Shown: piece by piece, positions 4,499 to 13,876 of the stretch | How positions within the stretch are numbered: the stretch's first letter is position 1 | Layout: each line of letters opens with the position of its first letter | Source: Escherichia coli | GTDB lineage: Bacteria > Pseudomonadota > Gammaproteobacteria > Enterobacterales > Enterobacteriaceae | Assembly (NCBI RefSeq): GCF_003790525.1 | Contig: NZ_CP033635.1 | Length of the DNA stretch: 64,000 bases | Strand: one strand, 5' to 3' | The notes under the pieces: model-generated | Told to the model about the DNA's origin: nothing | The model's database searches: none | The model's input: the letters and a program-made list of their open reading frames with translations, nothing else | Made by a program: the position numbers and the translations under genes

Positions 4499-5065
4499 TT
4501 ACGCCGACTGCTCGCTGGCAACGATCTCTTCAATGGACCACGGATGAAACTTAATGGTTGTTTTACCATCGGTGACCGCCAGCGTCGGATTCGGTAATCG
4601 TTCATGCTCACCTTTTGGCGAACTGGTTTTAACTGAGATCCCCGGCAGGCTGAGTCCTTCATCAGAAAGCAATGCCAGCGCACGGGCATTCAGCGTTTCT
4701 GGATCACCCGGCAGAACGATTTCAATATGTTCCCAACCTTCGTGCGGGTAACGTTTTTCCCCAGGCCACGGTAGCTCCACAATGGAAAACTGCCAGTGAG
4801 CAACCTGTACCGGTTCATGCAATTTAAACAGACAAATCGGTCTGCCATTGATCATATTTTCTGACAAAAGCTCGCCGCACTGTTCAAACCCGCGACGCCA
4901 GCGCTCAGCGGTGGCGTTTTGATGGCAACGCAAGGAAATGTGATCGGCAGTCAGCGGAGTGATATCCAACCCCAGACGGCGGGAAAGTTCATCTAATGCG
5001 TGGGTAAATCGCGGTAAATCCGATGCAATATCCTGCAGCTCGTCGATAGATTGCCAGTTCGCCAT
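4499..5065 (-). CDS. yecM: YecM (VOC-fold protein of unknown function)
   Basis: ORF MANWQSIDELQDIASDLPRF...; K-12 start taken at MANWQ (188 aa). Confidence 0.9.
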   Translation of the reverse strand: MANWQSIDELQDIASDLPRFTHALDELSRRLGLDITPLTADHISLRCHQNATAERWRRGFEQCGELLSENMINGRPICLFKLHEPVQVAHWQFSIVELPWPGEKRYPHEGWEHIEIVLPGDPETLNARALALLSDEGLSLPGISVKTSSPKGEHERLPNPTLAVTDGKTTIKFHPWSIEEIVASEQSA

Positions 5066-7459: not shown

Positions 7460-9537
7460 CATTTACCGCCAATTGTCGCCGTCATGCGGATATGTCGGTT
7501 ATCAGACAGTTCCAGATTCGACAGCACCACTAACTGCGGCAGACTGCGGCGCAGGAAGCGAGACAATAAAGGTCGCAGCGCGTGGTTCACCAATAAAACT
7601 GGCGGCGCACCCAACATCTCCTGACGGGATAGCGCTTCCTGAGTTTGCGCCAGTAAACGATCCGCCAGCCCTGGCTCCAGTCCGCCCCCGCCCTGCAGCG
7701 CCTGTAGTAACAAACGTTCCAGCGGTGTATCGAGGCCAATAACATGGACTTCATCTTTGCCAGGAAACCACTGCTGGGTAATCGCCCGTCCCAACGCCAC
7801 GCGCACGACGGCGGTTAATTCATGTGGATCGCTTTGGATGGGCGCATGTTCCGCCAGCGTTTCGAGAATAGTGCGCATATCGCGAATCGGTACTTTTTCA
7901 TCGAGCAGATTTTGCAGCACTTTATGCAGTGTGGTGAGCGTGACGACGCCAGGAACGAGATCTTCCGTCAGCTTTGGCATCTCCTGGGCGACGCGATCCA
8001 GCAGCTGTTGCGCCTCCTGACGACCAAACAGCTCTGCGGCATGCTGGCTAATGAGGTGGTTAAGATGCGTTGCCACCACCGTGCTGGCCTCAACCACGGT
8101 GTATCCCTGAATCTGCGCCTGTTCTTTAAGCGCACTTTCAATCCAGATAGCATTCAGGCCAAATGCCGGATCGACGGTCGCCTCACCAGGTAACGTCCCG
8201 GCAGCGGTACCAGGGTTAATCGCCAACCAACGCCCCGGATAAGCATCACCACTGCCTATCTCCACGCCTTTCATCAAAATGCGATAGCGGGCAGGTTGCA
8301 GATCCATATTGTCGCGAATGTGCACCACCGGCGGCAGAAACCCCATCTCCTGGGCAAATTTCTTGCGAATACTGCGTATACGGCCCAGCAACTCACCATC
8401 CTGCTGGAAATCGACCATCGGGATCAGGCGATAACCCACTTCCATTCCCAGAGAATCTTCCAGTTGTACATCGTTCCACGTCGCTTCGACAACGGTATTA
8501 TTCTCTGCCATTTTTACCGGTTTTGGTTCGGCAGGCGCTTTTTGTTCACGTCCACGGATCCACCAGGCCAGCCCCAGCAATCCGGCAGTGAACAGCAAAA
8601 ATACCAGGTTTGGCATTCCAGGCACCAGGCCGAGTAAACCGAGCACGGCGGCGCTTAACAACATAACGCTTGGGTTACTGAAAAGCTGATTCACCATCTG
8701 CTCGCCAACATCCTGATCGGTGCTGACACGCGTAACGATGACCCCCGCGGCGGTAGAAATCACCAACGCCGGAATTTGTGCCACCAGACCGTCGCCAATG
8801 GTCAATAGCGTATAACTTTCCGCCGCGTGTCCCATGCTCATGCCATGTTGCAGCACGCCGACCAGCAACCCGCCGACAACGTTAATGACCATGATGAGGA
8901 TCCCGGCGATGGCATCGCCGCGAACAAACTTACTTGCCCCATCCATTGAGCCGTAAAAATCGGCTTCCTGAGTCACTTCGGAGCGGCGTTTTTTCGCCTC
9001 ATCTTCACCAATCAATCCAGCGTTAAGGTCGGCGTCAATCGCCATCTGCTTACCCGGCATGCCATCGAGAACAAAGCGCGCACCCACTTCTGCGATACGC
9101 CCGGCACCTTTGGTAATGACCATAAAGTTGATGATCACGAGAATGACAAACACCACGATACCGATAGCGAAATTGCCACCAACGAGGAAGTGACCGAACG
9201 CTTCGACCACCTTTCCAGCCGCCGCCGCGCCGGTATGCCCTTCCATCAAAATGATACGGGTTGAAGCCACGTTAAGTGCCAGACGCAACAGCGTGGTAAA
9301 CAACAGGATGGTCGGAAACGCAGCAAACTCAAGCGTGCGCTGGGTAAACATCGCCACCAGCAACACCATGATCGACAAGGCAATATTGAAGGTAAACAGC
9401 AGGTCGAGTATGAATGCGGGCAGTGGCAGTACCATCATCGACAAGATCAACAGGATCAAAATCGGTCCGGCAAGGATCTGCCATTGTGTCGATTTCAGGT
9501 TTGCGGGCAGGCGCAGCATCGCGGCCAGATTACTCAT
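7459..9537 (-). CDS. flhA: flagellar export apparatus protein FlhA
   Basis: 692-aa ORF MSNLAAMLRLPANLKSTQWQILAGPILILL... Confidence 0.97.
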   Translation of the reverse strand: MSNLAAMLRLPANLKSTQWQILAGPILILLILSMMVLPLPAFILDLLFTFNIALSIMVLLVAMFTQRTLEFAAFPTILLFTTLLRLALNVASTRIILMEGHTGAAAAGKVVEAFGHFLVGGNFAIGIVVFVILVIINFMVITKGAGRIAEVGARFVLDGMPGKQMAIDADLNAGLIGEDEAKKRRSEVTQEADFYGSMDGASKFVRGDAIAGILIMVINVVGGLLVGVLQHGMSMGHAAESYTLLTIGDGLVAQIPALVISTAAGVIVTRVSTDQDVGEQMVNQLFSNPSVMLLSAAVLGLLGLVPGMPNLVFLLFTAGLLGLAWWIRGREQKAPAEPKPVKMAENNTVVEATWNDVQLEDSLGMEVGYRLIPMVDFQQDGELLGRIRSIRKKFAQEMGFLPPVVHIRDNMDLQPARYRILMKGVEIGSGDAYPGRWLAINPGTAAGTLPGEATVDPAFGLNAIWIESALKEQAQIQGYTVVEASTVVATHLNHLISQHAAELFGRQEAQQLLDRVAQEMPKLTEDLVPGVVTLTTLHKVLQNLLDEKVPIRDMRTILETLAEHAPIQSDPHELTAVVRVALGRAITQQWFPGKDEVHVIGLDTPLERLLLQALQGGGGLEPGLADRLLAQTQEALSRQEMLGAPPVLLVNHALRPLLSRFLRRSLPQLVVLSNLELSDNRHIRMTATIGGK

Positions 9538-10678
9538 GGGACGGTTTCTCGTTAATAAAATCCAGGGCTTCCGGCACCGGAAGATGAGTAGGTTGTACAG
9601 GGCGCTGTCCTCCAGCCAGACGCCAGCGTTTCAGTTGCCAGACCCAGGCCAGCACTTCCGCTACCGCGGCGTACAGTTGACCCGGGATTTGTTGACCGAT
9701 CTCCGCATGTCGATACAGCGCTCGCGCCAGCGGCGGCGCTTCAAGCGTAGGGACGTTATTTTCAGCACCAATTTCACGAATGCGCAGCGCGACCAGTCCT
9801 GCACCTTTAGCGACCACTTTCGGTGCGCTCATTTTGTTTTCGTCATACTGCAACGCTACCGAATAGTGGGTTGGGTTATTGACAATGACATCCGCTTTCG
9901 GCACATCGGCCATCATCCGACGCCGCGCGGCAGCTCGCTGCATCTGACGTATCCGCCCTTTAACATGGGGGTCGCCTTCGCTTTGTTTGAACTCATCACG
10001 AATATCCTGCCGCGACATTCGCAGCTTTTTCAGGTGGCTGAAGATTTGGAAAAAGACGTCAAATCCCACCATCGGAATAACACCAAGCACCACCAGCAGT
10101 GCGCATAGCCCTACCAGATCCATCGCATTACCCATGGCGGTAATCGGAGACTCGGCCATTAAGCGCATCATCTGCGGCCAGTGATGCCAGAGAAAAAACC
10201 CCGTCACGCTGCCAACCAGGATGGTTTTCAAAATTGCCTTAAGCAACTCCGCGCCAGTCTGTGCCGAGAACATCCGTTTAATGCCCGGTAGCGGGTTGAG
10301 TTTGGAAAACTTCGGCTGCAAGGATTTGCCGCTAAATACCAGCCCCCCCAGCATAACCGGAGAAATAATCGCCACCAGCACCACGCCGCTAATCAGCGGT
10401 AGCAGCGCCAGCATGGCTTCTCTGATCAGCAGAATAATCTGCCCGAGGATCAAATTCGGGTCATTGATAATACTGTGATCAAAATGCAGCCCAGCGGAGA
10501 GCATGCCCGACAATCGACGGGCCAGCGACACACCGCCAAACCAGATAACACACACGCCCACTAACAAAATCAGCAGCGAGGTCAGTTCACGGGAACGCGG
10601 GATTTGCCCCTCTTCCCGCGCTTTTTCTAGTCGGTGAGGTGTGGGGGCTTCTGTTTTGTCGTCGCTCTCGTCAGACAC
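9530..10678 (-). CDS. flhB: flagellar export apparatus switch protein FlhB
   Basis: 382-aa ORF with NPTH autocleavage motif (VIVNNPTHYSVAL). Confidence 0.97.
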   Translation of the reverse strand: MSDESDDKTEAPTPHRLEKAREEGQIPRSRELTSLLILLVGVCVIWFGGVSLARRLSGMLSAGLHFDHSIINDPNLILGQIILLIREAMLALLPLISGVVLVAIISPVMLGGLVFSGKSLQPKFSKLNPLPGIKRMFSAQTGAELLKAILKTILVGSVTGFFLWHHWPQMMRLMAESPITAMGNAMDLVGLCALLVVLGVIPMVGFDVFFQIFSHLKKLRMSRQDIRDEFKQSEGDPHVKGRIRQMQRAAARRRMMADVPKADVIVNNPTHYSVALQYDENKMSAPKVVAKGAGLVALRIREIGAENNVPTLEAPPLARALYRHAEIGQQIPGQLYAAVAEVLAWVWQLKRWRLAGGQRPVQPTHLPVPEALDFINEKPSHE

Positions 10679-10914
10679 GTCGCCAATCCTGGAAAGAGTA
10701 TTAAGCGTAAATGATGCCAGATCGCAAAGCGTTCAATGGTTTGAGTAAGGGGCAAAACAGGCGGGATTTAGGGCGTTTATGCAAAAAACAGGTTCAGTTG
10801 CAGAACGTTTTGCGAACCATTTTCCAGTTCTGATATTTAGCCATTTAGCCTATAGAATCGCCCACCGCCTCTCTGTTAGTTTGCTAATAATTAAATTATT
10901 ACAAAGGCGATCAA
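10679..10914. promoter_or_regulatory. divergent intergenic region: flhBAE class-2 promoter region (minus) and putative promoter of the inserted cassette (plus)
   Basis: 236-bp gap between divergent starts; candidate sigma70-like elements ttgcga (10810-10815) and tatagaat (10851-10858); RBS aagg 9-12 nt upstream of ATG 10915. Confidence 0.4.
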
Positions 10915-12423
10915 ATGGAATGGCAACAATTGCTTAACTGCAACCGTCGGAAAGATAATCTAAAAAAAACCAGCATAGAATTTTTACATCCCCTTGCTAG
11001 CGGAAGACAAGAGATCGAGCGGGATTACGACCGATTACTTTTTGCTGCGCCAACTCGTCGGCTTGCGGATAAAACACAAGTTTTCCCGTTAGATCAAAAT
11101 GACAGTATACGGACGAGGCTGACTCATTCTCACGAAGTAGCAAACTTTGCTCGCGGAATAGGAATGAGACTCGCTTTCGAGATGAAGGAACACATCTTTG
11201 GCGAAATACCCACGGGGATTGTCGTTGAACGCGACGTTCCTGCTCTGTTAGCAGCGATCGGACTGGCACACGATCTCGGTAATCCACCATTTGGGCATCA
11301 AGGTGAAGCAGCGATGCGCGCATGGTTTAATAAAAATCTTCCAGGCCTTCTTGATAAAGAAGTAAACAGCGAAATATATAACGACTTTCTGCAATTTGAT
11401 GGAAACTCACAAACCCTACGCCTGGTTACCAAATTACAAATTATTAACGATAACTTTGGTCTGAATCTGACCTATGCCACGCTGGCTGCACTGATCAAAT
11501 ATCCCCGAGCTTCATATTCATCGGACAAACATTGGAAAAAGCACGGTTTTTTCTATTCTGAGCATGAGGTTGTCATGGATGTCTGGCAGCAAACGGGCCT
11601 TGGCGTACCAGGTAATGATGCCGGTTGCCGCCACCCATTTACCTGGATAATGGAAGCTTGCGACGATATTGCCTACTCTGTGCTTGACGCAGAAGATACC
11701 ATCAAGAAAGGATTTGCCTCATACCAGGATTTGCGTGATTTTTTGATGTCACAATCCGAGCCGAACGATGTAATTCAACATGTTATTGAAGCTGTAGAGG
11801 CCAAAAATGACGCCTGGAAAGAGCAAAGAAATGCACTTTCACCGGCGGAAATTAATGAACTCAGTATGCAAATGTTCAGAGTTTATGCCACCAGTGCATT
11901 GATTAATGCCGTAGTAGAAGCCTTTCGCGAACAATTACCCACGCTGATGCAGCGTGACTGCCCGTTCAAAGATTTAATCTCGCAAAGCAAAGGTCACGCT
12001 CTCTGCACTGCCCTGAAAATGTTCGACCGAACACGAGGCTACCTTCATCGTTCAGTCTTGCAACTGGAACTTAGGGGATCTAATTACATTACTAACTTGA
12101 TGGATATGCTCTGGATTGGCATCCATGGACACAAAACAAAGAAACAACGAGACGGAGAACGCGAGTCCGCGTCTGCAGATAACCTTTTTGTTTCTCGTGA
12201 AGAATACCTGTCGGATACTCCCTTTGGTCGCTATGCTTACGGGACAATCTCTGAAAATTATCGCCGTGTGTTTGAAGATCCCGCCAATACACTCCCTGCT
12301 CTTTATAAAGAAGCGCAGTTGCTTACCGACGCAATCTCAGGCATGACGGATAGTTATTTAATGCGCCTTCACGATGAGCTAAAATCACTGTATGAATGTG
12401 GTCTCAAACACCCAACAGCTTGA
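10915..12423 (+). CDS. dGTP triphosphohydrolase (Dgt)-family HD-domain protein, extra paralog in non-native locus
   Basis: 502-aa ORF; motifs RRLADKTQVFPL, RTRLTHSHEV, HDLGNPPFGHQGE, FDGNSQTLRL, WIMEACDDIAYSVLDAEDTI, ISGMTDSYL align with E. coli Dgt by eye; AT-rich; opposite strand to flanking flagellar genes. Confidence 0.8.
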   Translation: MEWQQLLNCNRRKDNLKKTSIEFLHPLASGRQEIERDYDRLLFAAPTRRLADKTQVFPLDQNDSIRTRLTHSHEVANFARGIGMRLAFEMKEHIFGEIPTGIVVERDVPALLAAIGLAHDLGNPPFGHQGEAAMRAWFNKNLPGLLDKEVNSEIYNDFLQFDGNSQTLRLVTKLQIINDNFGLNLTYATLAALIKYPRASYSSDKHWKKHGFFYSEHEVVMDVWQQTGLGVPGNDAGCRHPFTWIMEACDDIAYSVLDAEDTIKKGFASYQDLRDFLMSQSEPNDVIQHVIEAVEAKNDAWKEQRNALSPAEINELSMQMFRVYATSALINAVVEAFREQLPTLMQRDCPFKDLISQSKGHALCTALKMFDRTRGYLHRSVLQLELRGSNYITNLMDMLWIGIHGHKTKKQRDGERESASADNLFVSREEYLSDTPFGRYAYGTISENYRRVFEDPANTLPALYKEAQLLTDAISGMTDSYLMRLHDELKSLYECGLKHPTA

Positions 12424-13144
12424 ACAGCGTATCGCCGATTTTTTTACGCTTAGTGATGAGCATAAGAAAGCCAGAGTATTACTTGATACTCTGGCCTGTT
12501 CCTGTCCGGCCTGGATTTTTGGCGGGATGGTGCGTGACTTAGGCTTGTTTGGCGTCGAGGGATTCTCTTCAGACCTTGATATCGTCATCGGTCGCTCCCG
12601 TGAGGAACTCTTCCGGACATTGGCTGAACTGCCCGTCAAACAACTGCGTTTTAATAAGTTCGGTGGGATCCGTTTTCGTTATCACGACTTCGAATTTGAT
12701 ATCTGGAACCTCAATGAGACATGGGCATTTCGGGAAAAACTTATATTTTGTGAGGATGAATCAAGTCTGTTAAACACTACGCTGATGAGTTGGGATGCCG
12801 TGCTCTATGATCTACGTAGTGAAAAAATTATCAGTAAAGATAATTATTTGACCGACTTAAATCGCAGACATCTTGAACTTGTTCTTCATACTAACCCCAA
12901 TCCAAGCGGTTCGGTAACGAAAATTTTACGCACTATTTTTACTAAGCAGGTAAAGAGTTTAGGTCCGGAACTCTGTCATTTCTTGCACCATGAACTGACG
13001 AAAAAACGTTATGAAGTTTGGCATCATTACGATGTACTGCACTACCAGTCATCGTCATTTTCTCGTTCACAATTTAATGCGTTGATAAATTTACTGGCGC
13101 AACAATCACGCTTCGCTGATCTAAAATTATCAAATTACAAATAA
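12392..13144 (+). CDS. Pol-beta superfamily nucleotidyltransferase, CCA-adding/poly(A) polymerase head-like
   Basis: 250-aa ORF with IFGGMVRDLGLFGVEGFSSDLDIVI, matching the GGxVRD...DxD head motif of class II tRNA nucleotidyltransferases; overlaps preceding gene by 32 nt; very AT-rich. Confidence 0.55.
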   Translation: MNVVSNTQQLEQRIADFFTLSDEHKKARVLLDTLACSCPAWIFGGMVRDLGLFGVEGFSSDLDIVIGRSREELFRTLAELPVKQLRFNKFGGIRFRYHDFEFDIWNLNETWAFREKLIFCEDESSLLNTTLMSWDAVLYDLRSEKIISKDNYLTDLNRRHLELVLHTNPNPSGSVTKILRTIFTKQVKSLGPELCHFLHHELTKKRYEVWHHYDVLHYQSSSFSRSQFNALINLLAQQSRFADLKLSNYK

Positions 13145-13231
13145 CCATCCTCCACATACTTCCTGAACGATACCCGCCCCCCTGCTATCGGCCTGGCATC
13201 ATCGCGCAGGCCGAAGTTAAGGCAATACAAA

Positions 13232-13876
13232 TCAAAATCCAAGACTATCCAACAAATCGTCCACCTGATCCTGACTGGCTACCACACCGGCTTTGCTGGT
13301 ATCGACCTGAGGTCCATTAAGCAAACTCTGGTTTTCACGTTTTGGACGCGACTCCTGTTCCGGGATGTTTTCCAACAGCACCATCAGCAACTGACGTTCG
13401 ATCTCCTGAATGACATCCATCATCCGCTTAATGACCTGCCCGGTGAGATCCTGAAAATCCTGCGCCATCATGATTTCCAGCAGTTGCGCGTTAGTAAAGC
13501 TGGTATGCGCGGGGACATCTGCCAGAAATTGCCGCGTATCTGTTACCAGTTCACGGGCGTCGGCAAGGTCAATCGGATCGGCAAACCAGTCATCCCAACG
13601 TTGGGTTAACGCTTTTGCTGATTTCTCCATTTGATCCTGATGCGGTTGTGACGCCTCAACACTGTTCAGCGCCCGCTCCGCAGCCTGGGCGGTCATCTGC
13701 ACAACATAGTACAAACGATCGCGCGCATCGGGGATGGCTTCCGCCGCTTCGGCAATGGCCTGATCCAGCCCCAGCTCCCGCAAACTGTCGCGCAGCATAC
13801 GCGTCAGGCTGCCGATGCGCGCAATGATATCGCCAGCTGAATGCTCGTCAGCAGGTTTGATTGATGGTTGCATCAT
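13232..13876 (-). CDS. cheZ: CheY-P phosphatase CheZ
   Basis: [35 protein letters not shown]... (214 aa from MMQPS). Confidence 0.96.

Follow-up and report, generated by a model that had tools for sequence, protein, structure and literature searches.

A predicted Clover anti-phage operon between cheZ and flhB of Escherichia coli, with an overlapping brake gene and a probable shared 3'-end structure

Between the chemotaxis gene cheZ and the flagellar gene flhB of Escherichia coli, a two-gene cassette appears to constitute a Clover anti-phage system of an experimentally uncharacterised subtype, in which a nucleotidyltransferase gene (cloB) follows and overlaps the gene for a toxic dGTPase (cloA). 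The cassette was analyzed in a stretch of 64,000 nucleotides (nt) of E. coli DNA (assembly GCF_003790525.1, contig NZ_CP033635.1), hereafter the window. The reading favored here, to which a probability of about 0.7 is given, is that of a mostly ordinary operon design: a Clover operon whose second gene, encoding the brake on the effector, lacks a Shine-Dalgarno (SD) sequence and is translationally coupled to the first, and which closes with a non-canonical 3' end working in both directions. An initial annotation had described the pair as a Dgt-like protein and a nucleotidyltransferase with a 32-nt overlap, and had proposed translational coupling, fixed stoichiometry and, in view of a gap without an obvious terminator, possible antisense cross-talk with motility genes.

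Identification of the Clover operon

Clover is a two-gene system composed of the dGTPase CloA and the nucleotidyltransferase CloB (Yamaguchi et al., bioRxiv 2025, PMC12265719; PDB 9P8S-9P8V). CloA is switched on by dTTP, which rises during infection by T5-like phages, and is kept off in uninfected cells by p3diT, a dinucleotide made by CloB; an operon with inactivated CloB is highly toxic (PMC12265719). The two genes of the window are:

10915 to 12423, plus strand: cloA, HD-domain dGTPase of 502 amino acids (aa), the Clover effector by homology to Salmonella CloA
12392 to 13144, plus strand: cloB, Pol-beta-type nucleotidyltransferase of 250 aa, by homology to EcPF16 CloB

CloA matched the chains of Salmonella CloA solved by cryo-electron microscopy (PDB 9P8S-9P8V) with 67% identity (E = 5.6e-191). 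When the published functional residues of the Salmonella protein were mapped onto it by alignment, identity was complete in the metal/HD site (4/4; Salmonella H69, H117, D118 and D242, corresponding to H71, H119, D120 and D250), in the HE catalytic dyad (2/2; H126 and E129, corresponding to H128 and E131) and in the dTTP activator pocket (9/9; Salmonella R47, D61, Q172, K256, S418, N420, A444, T449 and Y452), and all nine contacts to the dGTP substrate were conserved. The p3diT inhibitor pocket was identical at nine of ten positions (Salmonella T25, R29, R34, D37, R38, F41, N75, N181, Q311 and R314), the sole difference being Salmonella T25, which is L27 in the window. The protein is therefore presumed, by homology, to be a dGTPase activated by dTTP and inhibited by p3diT. 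It also matches the PADLOC dGTPase model and TIGR01353, and RefSeq names the gene at 10915-12423 'dgt'; its assignment as a housekeeping dgt was rejected because its scores lie below both equivalog cut-offs (358 against 439 bits and 271 against 405 bits). Around residues 406-430 (window 12120-12200), CloA carries an extra charged segment of about 20 aa (the KTKKQRDGERESASADNLFVSREEYLS region) compared with Salmonella CloA, and this segment belongs to the C-terminal helical bundle, on which the geometry of the oligomer depends in the published structure.

The identity of CloB rests on its homology to the CloB of a 2200-bp operon of E. coli EcPF16 (35% identity over 249 aa, E = 1e-54). Curated libraries gave no family match: none was found in PADLOC or NCBIfam, no solved relative was found in PDB, and the match to Pfam PolyA_pol was weak (E = 0.099). 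The Pol-beta nucleotidyltransferase motif [D/E]h[D/E] ... h[D/E]h is present (D61-L-D63 and F-D103-I), and G44, G45, R48 and D49 (GG-x-x-RD), D61, D63 and D103 are invariant across 20 CloB homologues. D61 and D63 align with D71 and D73 of EcPF16 CloB. The EcPF16 operon measures exactly 2200 bp and its catalytic residues are D71 and D73; the same figures are published for the E. coli H5 operon that was tested (PMC12265719), and by this length and residue numbering it would fit the H5 type. CloB of the window is thus presumed to be the p3diT synthase that restrains CloA.

The cloA-cloB overlap and probable translational coupling

12392 to 12423, plus strand: cloA/cloB overlap of 32 nt, from open reading frames (ORFs) and RefSeq

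The position and length of the overlap given in the initial annotation were borne out by both the ORFs and the RefSeq coding sequences (CDS). Because the cloB frame has a stop codon a little upstream (TAA, 12380-12382), ATG 12392 is the first possible cloB start; the sole alternative before the catalytic GGMVRD motif, GTG 12398, would still leave an overlap of 26 nt. The ATG is embedded in CloA codons Y493-E494 (tATGAa), which encode a conserved C-terminal Tyr-Glu. By length alone 32 nt is unremarkable, since otsB and otsA overlap by 26 nt in the same window, and it is conservation across the family that lifts the cloA/cloB overlap above chance.

This conservation was assessed in 43 loci encoding CloB relatives from a collection with one genome per species, to which metagenomic and E. 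coli loci were added. In 40 of the 43, the gene immediately preceding cloB on that strand encodes a CloA homologue, the other three being two decayed remnants and one locus at a contig end. Among 41 intact cloA-cloB pairs, including that of the window, 36 overlap, three abut and only two have spacers, of 1 and 15 nt, and overlap or abutment spans Alpha-, Beta- and Gammaproteobacteria, Verrucomicrobia and Bacillota. The length of the overlap varies with lineage:

Enterobacterales: 23-50 nt (47 nt in the EcPF16 operon)
Most other Gammaproteobacteria (Aeromonas, Photobacterium, Pseudomonas and several metagenome-assembled genomes): mostly 14-20 nt
Betaproteobacteria and some others: 4 nt (ATGA)
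Most Alphaproteobacteria: about 0-4 nt

In the Gammaproteobacteria loci examined at the junction, all overlaps of 14-50 nt are congruent to 2 modulo 3, meaning that the relative frame is fixed, and the cloB ATG lies inside the codons of a conserved CloA C-terminal motif, ...L-K-S-L-Y-E (L-Y-E/D). Past this motif, both the length and the sequence of the CloA tail differ between loci (GLKHPTA, ESRQKPTAS, RSQNTLCPQAAH, RQR), and the CloB N-terminus is conserved; therefore the length of the overlap is incidental, and what is conserved is the placement of the start codon at the end of functional CloA. Within the overlap, the window differs from its closest relative (locus L047) by two substitutions, both synonymous in cloB and non-synonymous in the cloA frame.

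The cloB gene has no SD sequence, its duplex with the anti-SD 3' end of 16S rRNA being at random background (-1.9 kcal/mol, against a mean of -1.94 at random positions in the window). For cloA the corresponding value is -4.2 kcal/mol in the window and -3.2 to -9.2 across loci, and for cloB it ranges from -2.4 to +0.7 kcal/mol in 14 of 15 loci tested. Taken with the family-wide overlap, this makes the proposed translational coupling of cloB to cloA well supported. Most likely, cloB would be translated mainly by ribosomes that have just finished with cloA, via coupling or termination-reinitiation, such that the toxic effector would never be produced without the brake enzyme, and the unconstrained CloA tail would simply run on in its own frame to the next stop, which would set the overlap length. 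The toxicity of CloA without active CloB provides a selective reason for such coupling. The fixed stoichiometry that had been read into the overlap does not follow from it, because CloB acts catalytically through the small molecule p3diT and is not a stoichiometric partner (PMC12265719).

The convergent gap and its probable 3'-end structure

13145 to 13231, no strand: gap of 87 nt between the convergent cloB and cheZ stops, from ORFs
13188 to 13214, either strand: GC-rich hairpin with 8+2 pairs and a 6-nt loop, -17.5 kcal/mol, no U-tract, from RNA folding
13145 to 13189, plus strand: C-rich, G-poor untranslated tract, candidate Rho loading (rut) site, with 22 C and 4 G in 45 nt (49% C, 9% G)

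Both the 87-nt gap, beyond which the cheZ stop codon occupies 13232-13234 on the minus strand, and the hairpin arms ggcctg (13190-13195) and caggcc (13207-13212) are present as the initial annotation had them. Its description of the hairpin as weak does not hold, as 13188-13214 folds at -17.5 kcal/mol on both strands and the fold of the surrounding 111 nt on the plus strand is more stable than that of shuffled sequence (z = -3.15). The hairpin is probably the shared 3'-end structure of both transcription units. A terminator scan detected no hairpin with a T-run in the gap on either strand, and the 9-nt tails after the extended stem contain only two and three T, which falls short of a U-tract on both strands. 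The absence of an obvious terminator is thus correct for the canonical intrinsic type and overstated otherwise, given the stable hairpin and the C-rich tract. C-rich, G-poor RNA is the composition expected for Rho loading at rut sites, and the cassette-strand tract appears to resemble such a site; the plus-strand C/G ratio reaches 3-4.5 in 78-nt windows starting at 13101-13131. Most likely, the hairpin and the C-rich tract together would insulate the cassette from the tar-cheZ operon as a two-way 3' end of non-canonical type, assisted in part by Rho, and termination at the gap would be efficient.

In the most diverged E. coli allele (98.3% identity), the hairpin is unchanged and the remaining 60 nt of the gap have five substitutions, a difference that is not statistically significant. 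A search of 10600-13400 against Rfam at a permissive threshold gave one chance-level match inside cloA and no known RNA element in the gap. The hairpin was also considered as a repeat of the repetitive extragenic palindromic (REP) type and rejected, as it occurs at one place per genome.

Outside E. coli, at least six genera or lineages of Enterobacteriaceae have Clover at this cheZ-flhB site, convergent to cheZ (loci L006-L011, L014, L015, L041, L046 and L047; cloB end to cheZ stop, ~4750-4830 each). The hosts are Enterobacter quasihormaechei, two Atlantibacter species, Pseudescherichia vulneris, Escherichia sp. ESNIH1, an Enterobacteriaceae metagenome-assembled genome, Pluralibacter gergoviae and two Buttiauxella species with decayed remnants, in addition to two metagenomic contigs. 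Compared with E. coli, identity is 78-89% for the flanking CheZ and only 37-73% for CloB, a pattern suggesting that the system either arrived long ago and was then lost repeatedly or was replaced more than once at this site. At every intact same-site locus outside E. coli (10 loci), the gap measures 33-64 nt and contains one strong hairpin (-11 to -28 kcal/mol). The Enterobacter gap is a textbook two-way terminator (GAAAACACCACC...GGTGGTGTTTTTTT), T residues flank the hairpins at the Pseudescherichia-group sites and, more weakly, at the Atlantibacter sites, and hairpins without T-runs occur in Pluralibacter, at two metagenomic loci and in E. coli. The constancy of a single shared stem-loop across loci argues for selection to end both transcripts there. 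The Buttiauxella loci contain only cloA and cloB fragments (L015 2763-4636 and L041 3740-4252), with gaps to cheZ of 220 and 406 nt, and look like decayed Clover remnants.

Alternative explanations

Several observations weigh against the favored reading. At the overlap, RNA structure around the cloB start is no different from that of shuffled sequence (z = +0.51), with none that would enforce coupling, for which reason structure-gated coupling was dropped; a backward distance of 32 nt is long for termination-reinitiation; and ribosomes on cloA could occlude the cloB start. At the 3' end, intrinsic termination may be inefficient owing to the lack of a U-tract after the hairpin, and only about 45 nt of the C-rich region before the hairpin are untranslated, the rest being still translated. 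RNA read through from cheZ on the minus strand is G-rich for about 250 nt (C/G 0.2-0.6), which makes Rho help on the cheZ side doubtful and antisense leakage into cloB possible. Finally, the read-through result from K-12 that is cited below concerns a different spacer sequence.

The first alternative takes the gap as one without termination, in which the cassette is transcribed antisense into cheZ and cheY and flagellar class-3 transcripts run antisense into cloB, such that motility and Clover regulate each other through interference or antisense RNA. This is considered unlikely. The missing hairpin with a U-tract on either strand and the poor Rho substrate offered by the G-rich minus-strand RNA speak for it, and the convergence with cheZ that is conserved across genera could reflect a function. 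On the other hand, about half of the orthologous loci have T-run hairpins typical of two-way terminators, which points to selection for insulation, and the cassette strand has its own rut-like tract. The cheZ end of cassette-free K-12 likewise has no hairpin with a T-run, and Fitzgerald et al. (2014) reported no RNA-seq sign of cheZ-flhB co-transcription in K-12 and very little product of reverse transcription PCR across the junction (PMC4183435). K-12 thus shows little read-through without a canonical terminator, and a missing T-run at the cheZ end is therefore not evidence of read-through. In addition, the che and flh genes are kept at the site in the 98% of E. coli genomes that have no cassette. 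Cross-talk between motility and the cassette is regarded as speculation.

In a second and somewhat less probable alternative, the overlap has no meaning: cloB would be initiated independently, by an SD-independent or standby mechanism, at ATG 12392 or GTG 12398, and the overlap would be no more than a by-product of drift in the cloA stop codon. The variation of the overlap within Enterobacterales and the unconstrained CloA tail are compatible with this, as is the lack of structure sequestering the cloB start. It is difficult to reconcile with overlap or abutment that is nearly universal across the bacterial groups named above, with the two genes never more than 15 nt apart, and with a cloB that is systematically SD-less though cloA has an SD sequence. 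There is also a strong selective reason for co-expression, as loss of CloB is toxic (PMC12265719).

A third alternative, which is improbable, places the regulatory contact in the site itself. The fixed address between the FlhDC-dependent flhB promoter and the FliA-dependent tar-cheZ 3' end would represent integration with the flagellar regulon, and in motile cells convergent class-3 transcription, or FlhDC bound beside the cloA promoter, would shift the CloB:CloA balance. If this were true, the threshold of the dGTPase would be tuned when cells display flagella and are exposed to phages. Two features at the 5' end are relevant:

10810 to 10858, plus strand: candidate cloA promoter block, inferred from a scan with a chance-level count
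10735 to 10777, no strand: putative FlhDC operator of flhB, with inverted half-sites at 10735-10750 (plus) and 10762-10777 (minus) and an 11-nt spacer

The promoter block comprises two overlapping sigma-70-like candidates, TTGCGA (10810-10815) with TGaTATTTA (10831-10839) and CTGATA (10830-10835) with TAGAAT (10853-10858), and a -35-like block resembling TTGCGA is kept at the same position in other genera. The cloA and flhB candidate promoters are divergent and close together (10735-10858). The half-site consensus used for FlhDC, which is said to go back to Stafford et al. 2005, is a degenerate pattern (175 matches against 113 expected), and the operator is a lead only; it ends one base before the left cassette junction, and the TTGCGA block follows 33 bp further on. 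No FliA (sigma-28) promoter was seen upstream of cloA by eye, without a formal scan. Should the cassette have any regulatory link to motility, its 5' end is no worse a candidate for it than its 3' end.

The possibility that the overlap is a programmed frameshift site yielding a CloA-CloB fusion, which would suit the overlapping frames and the SD-less cloB, was rejected as extremely improbable. A stop codon in the cloB frame (TAA, 12380-12382) lies just upstream, the sequence has no slippery motif, and other lineages show an overlap of only 0-4 nt. Moreover, each of the 52 CloB homologues (151-276 aa) is a separate protein, and the chain solved for Salmonella contains CloA only (471-473 aa).

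Boundaries and distribution of the locus

9530 to 10678, minus strand: flhB, first gene of flhBAE, divergent from cloA, from gene calls and RefSeq
13232 to 13876, minus strand: cheZ, last gene of the tar-tap-cheRBYZ operon, from gene calls and RefSeq
10779 to 13219, no strand: cassette-specific DNA of 2.44 kb, from alignment with the empty sites of K-12 (L001) and HS-02 (L050)

The gene order is flhA and flhB (minus), the two-gene cassette (plus), and then cheZ, cheY, cheB, cheR and the rest of the chemotaxis operon (minus). The RefSeq CDS boundaries in E. coli SMS-3-5 (NC_010498.1), which is 100% identical over 3.3 kb, correspond to the same two ORFs. In the alignment with both empty sites, the cassette junctions fall at 10778/10779 and 13219/13220, and about 87 bp of the K-12 cheZ-flhB spacer, containing a REP-like hairpin pair downstream of cheZ, are replaced by the cassette of about 2.44 kb. 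Among 5426 complete E. coli genomes, 106 carry the cassette; in K-12 and 98% of the complete genomes the site is empty and flhB follows cheZ directly across a 201-bp spacer. Most likely, a minority of E. coli gained the Clover operon at this position.

Neither target-site duplication nor terminal inverted repeats were found at the two junctions, and no integrase or transposase was found at the cassette; a 10-nt inverted match (10711-10720 and 13193-13202) was discarded as a mobile-element signature, as it equals chance expectation. No CloB relative was detected among 50,697 phage records; of 72,556 plasmids, only 8 encode one, and all of these are non-enterobacterial.

Several individual genomes show altered alleles. 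E. coli HS-02, which has no cassette, keeps the hairpin segment 13178-13231 joined to a K-12-like REP by about 45 A (L050 1100-1254); it is the sole such genome among the 5426, and its allele may be a deletion derivative or an assembly artefact. In E. coli CLSC36 (L056 301-1809), cloA is split into two CDS and cloB is intact. In E. coli E17 (L052 4001-5329), an IS1 element cuts cloA short at about 620 nt and a truncated otsA comes next, an arrangement which implies that cloB and the whole che/mot/flhDC region were lost. An intact cloA with a broken cloB was not observed among the loci with an intact cloA-cloB site that were inspected in detail. A broken effector in CLSC36 and E17, and no intact cloA beside a broken cloB, fit the toxicity of CloA.

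Comparison with known systems

The cassette agrees with published Clover in its operon order (cloA and then cloB), in the conserved catalytic, dTTP and p3diT sites of CloA, in the Pol-beta acid triad of CloB and in the overlap of the two genes, which is also seen in the EcPF16 operon of the tested type. It differs from the tested type in a CloB of only 35% identity (250 aa versus 276 aa), from the published Salmonella protein in the insertion in CloA described above, and from EcPF16 in its location in the flagellar region and not in an integrase-bearing island. The second Clover type, found in EcPF16 (L051 3920-6119) and seven other genomes, has a CloA of 471 aa, a CloB of 276 aa and the 47-nt overlap, and lies within an integrase-bearing island at tRNA-Sec. 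Its neighbors in the EcPF16 island include genes for 7-cyano-7-deazaguanine synthase, PfkB kinase, 8-oxoguanine glycosylase and DNA adenine methylase, possibly another defence or DNA-modification module.

With the single-gene anti-phage dGTPases (Tal et al. 2022; NF041026; Shewanella SpdGTPase, PDB 9P8W), CloA shares the HD-domain dGTP triphosphohydrolase fold and the logic of nucleotide depletion. It is distant from them in sequence, scoring 183 bits against the NF041026 cut-off of 400 and matching 9P8W with E = 2.5e-24, and unlike them the cassette has a partner nucleotidyltransferase and, by homology, allosteric control.

The operon also resembles coupled overlapping gene pairs and toxin-antitoxin-like operons, in that stop and start overlap, the downstream gene is SD-less and a protector accompanies a toxic partner. 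In contrast to these, the effector comes first and the protector second, protection would be conferred by an enzymatically made small molecule instead of protein-protein neutralisation, and the overlap of 14-50 nt in Gammaproteobacteria exceeds the usual 1 or 4 nt. The single GC-rich stem-loop centred in a short convergent gap is like that of two-way terminators between convergent genes, although the E. coli hairpin, unlike those at the Enterobacter and Pseudescherichia sites, has no flanking A-run or T-run. Compared with REP elements and bacterial interspersed mosaic elements (BIME) at operon ends, the hairpin takes the place of the K-12 REP-like pair but is found at a single place per genome.

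Implications

The gene pair labelled 'dgt' and 'hypothetical protein' by RefSeq, and reported as a lone dGTPase by PADLOC 2.0, is recognized here as a Clover system. The Clover family, its mechanism and its operon form are already published, and current knowledge is not overturned by any of these results. The Clover paper (PMC12265719) does not mention the gene overlap, and none of the searched papers naming both cheZ and flhB presents the site as a defence hotspot; the family-wide SD-less, overlapped cloB start and the conserved address beside cheZ thus appear to be previously undescribed, if modest, additions.

These findings offer a rationale for the operon design, in which cloB has no SD sequence, its start falls among the final conserved codons of the gene for the toxic effector, and the brake is therefore not easily lost while the effector is made. 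They are also of practical relevance for cloning or re-engineering Clover, as separating the two genes or recoding the 3' end of cloA would be expected to alter the synthesis of CloB. Moreover, the combination of a conserved address beside cheZ with hairpins of variable quality would provide a natural test bed for termination between convergent operons.

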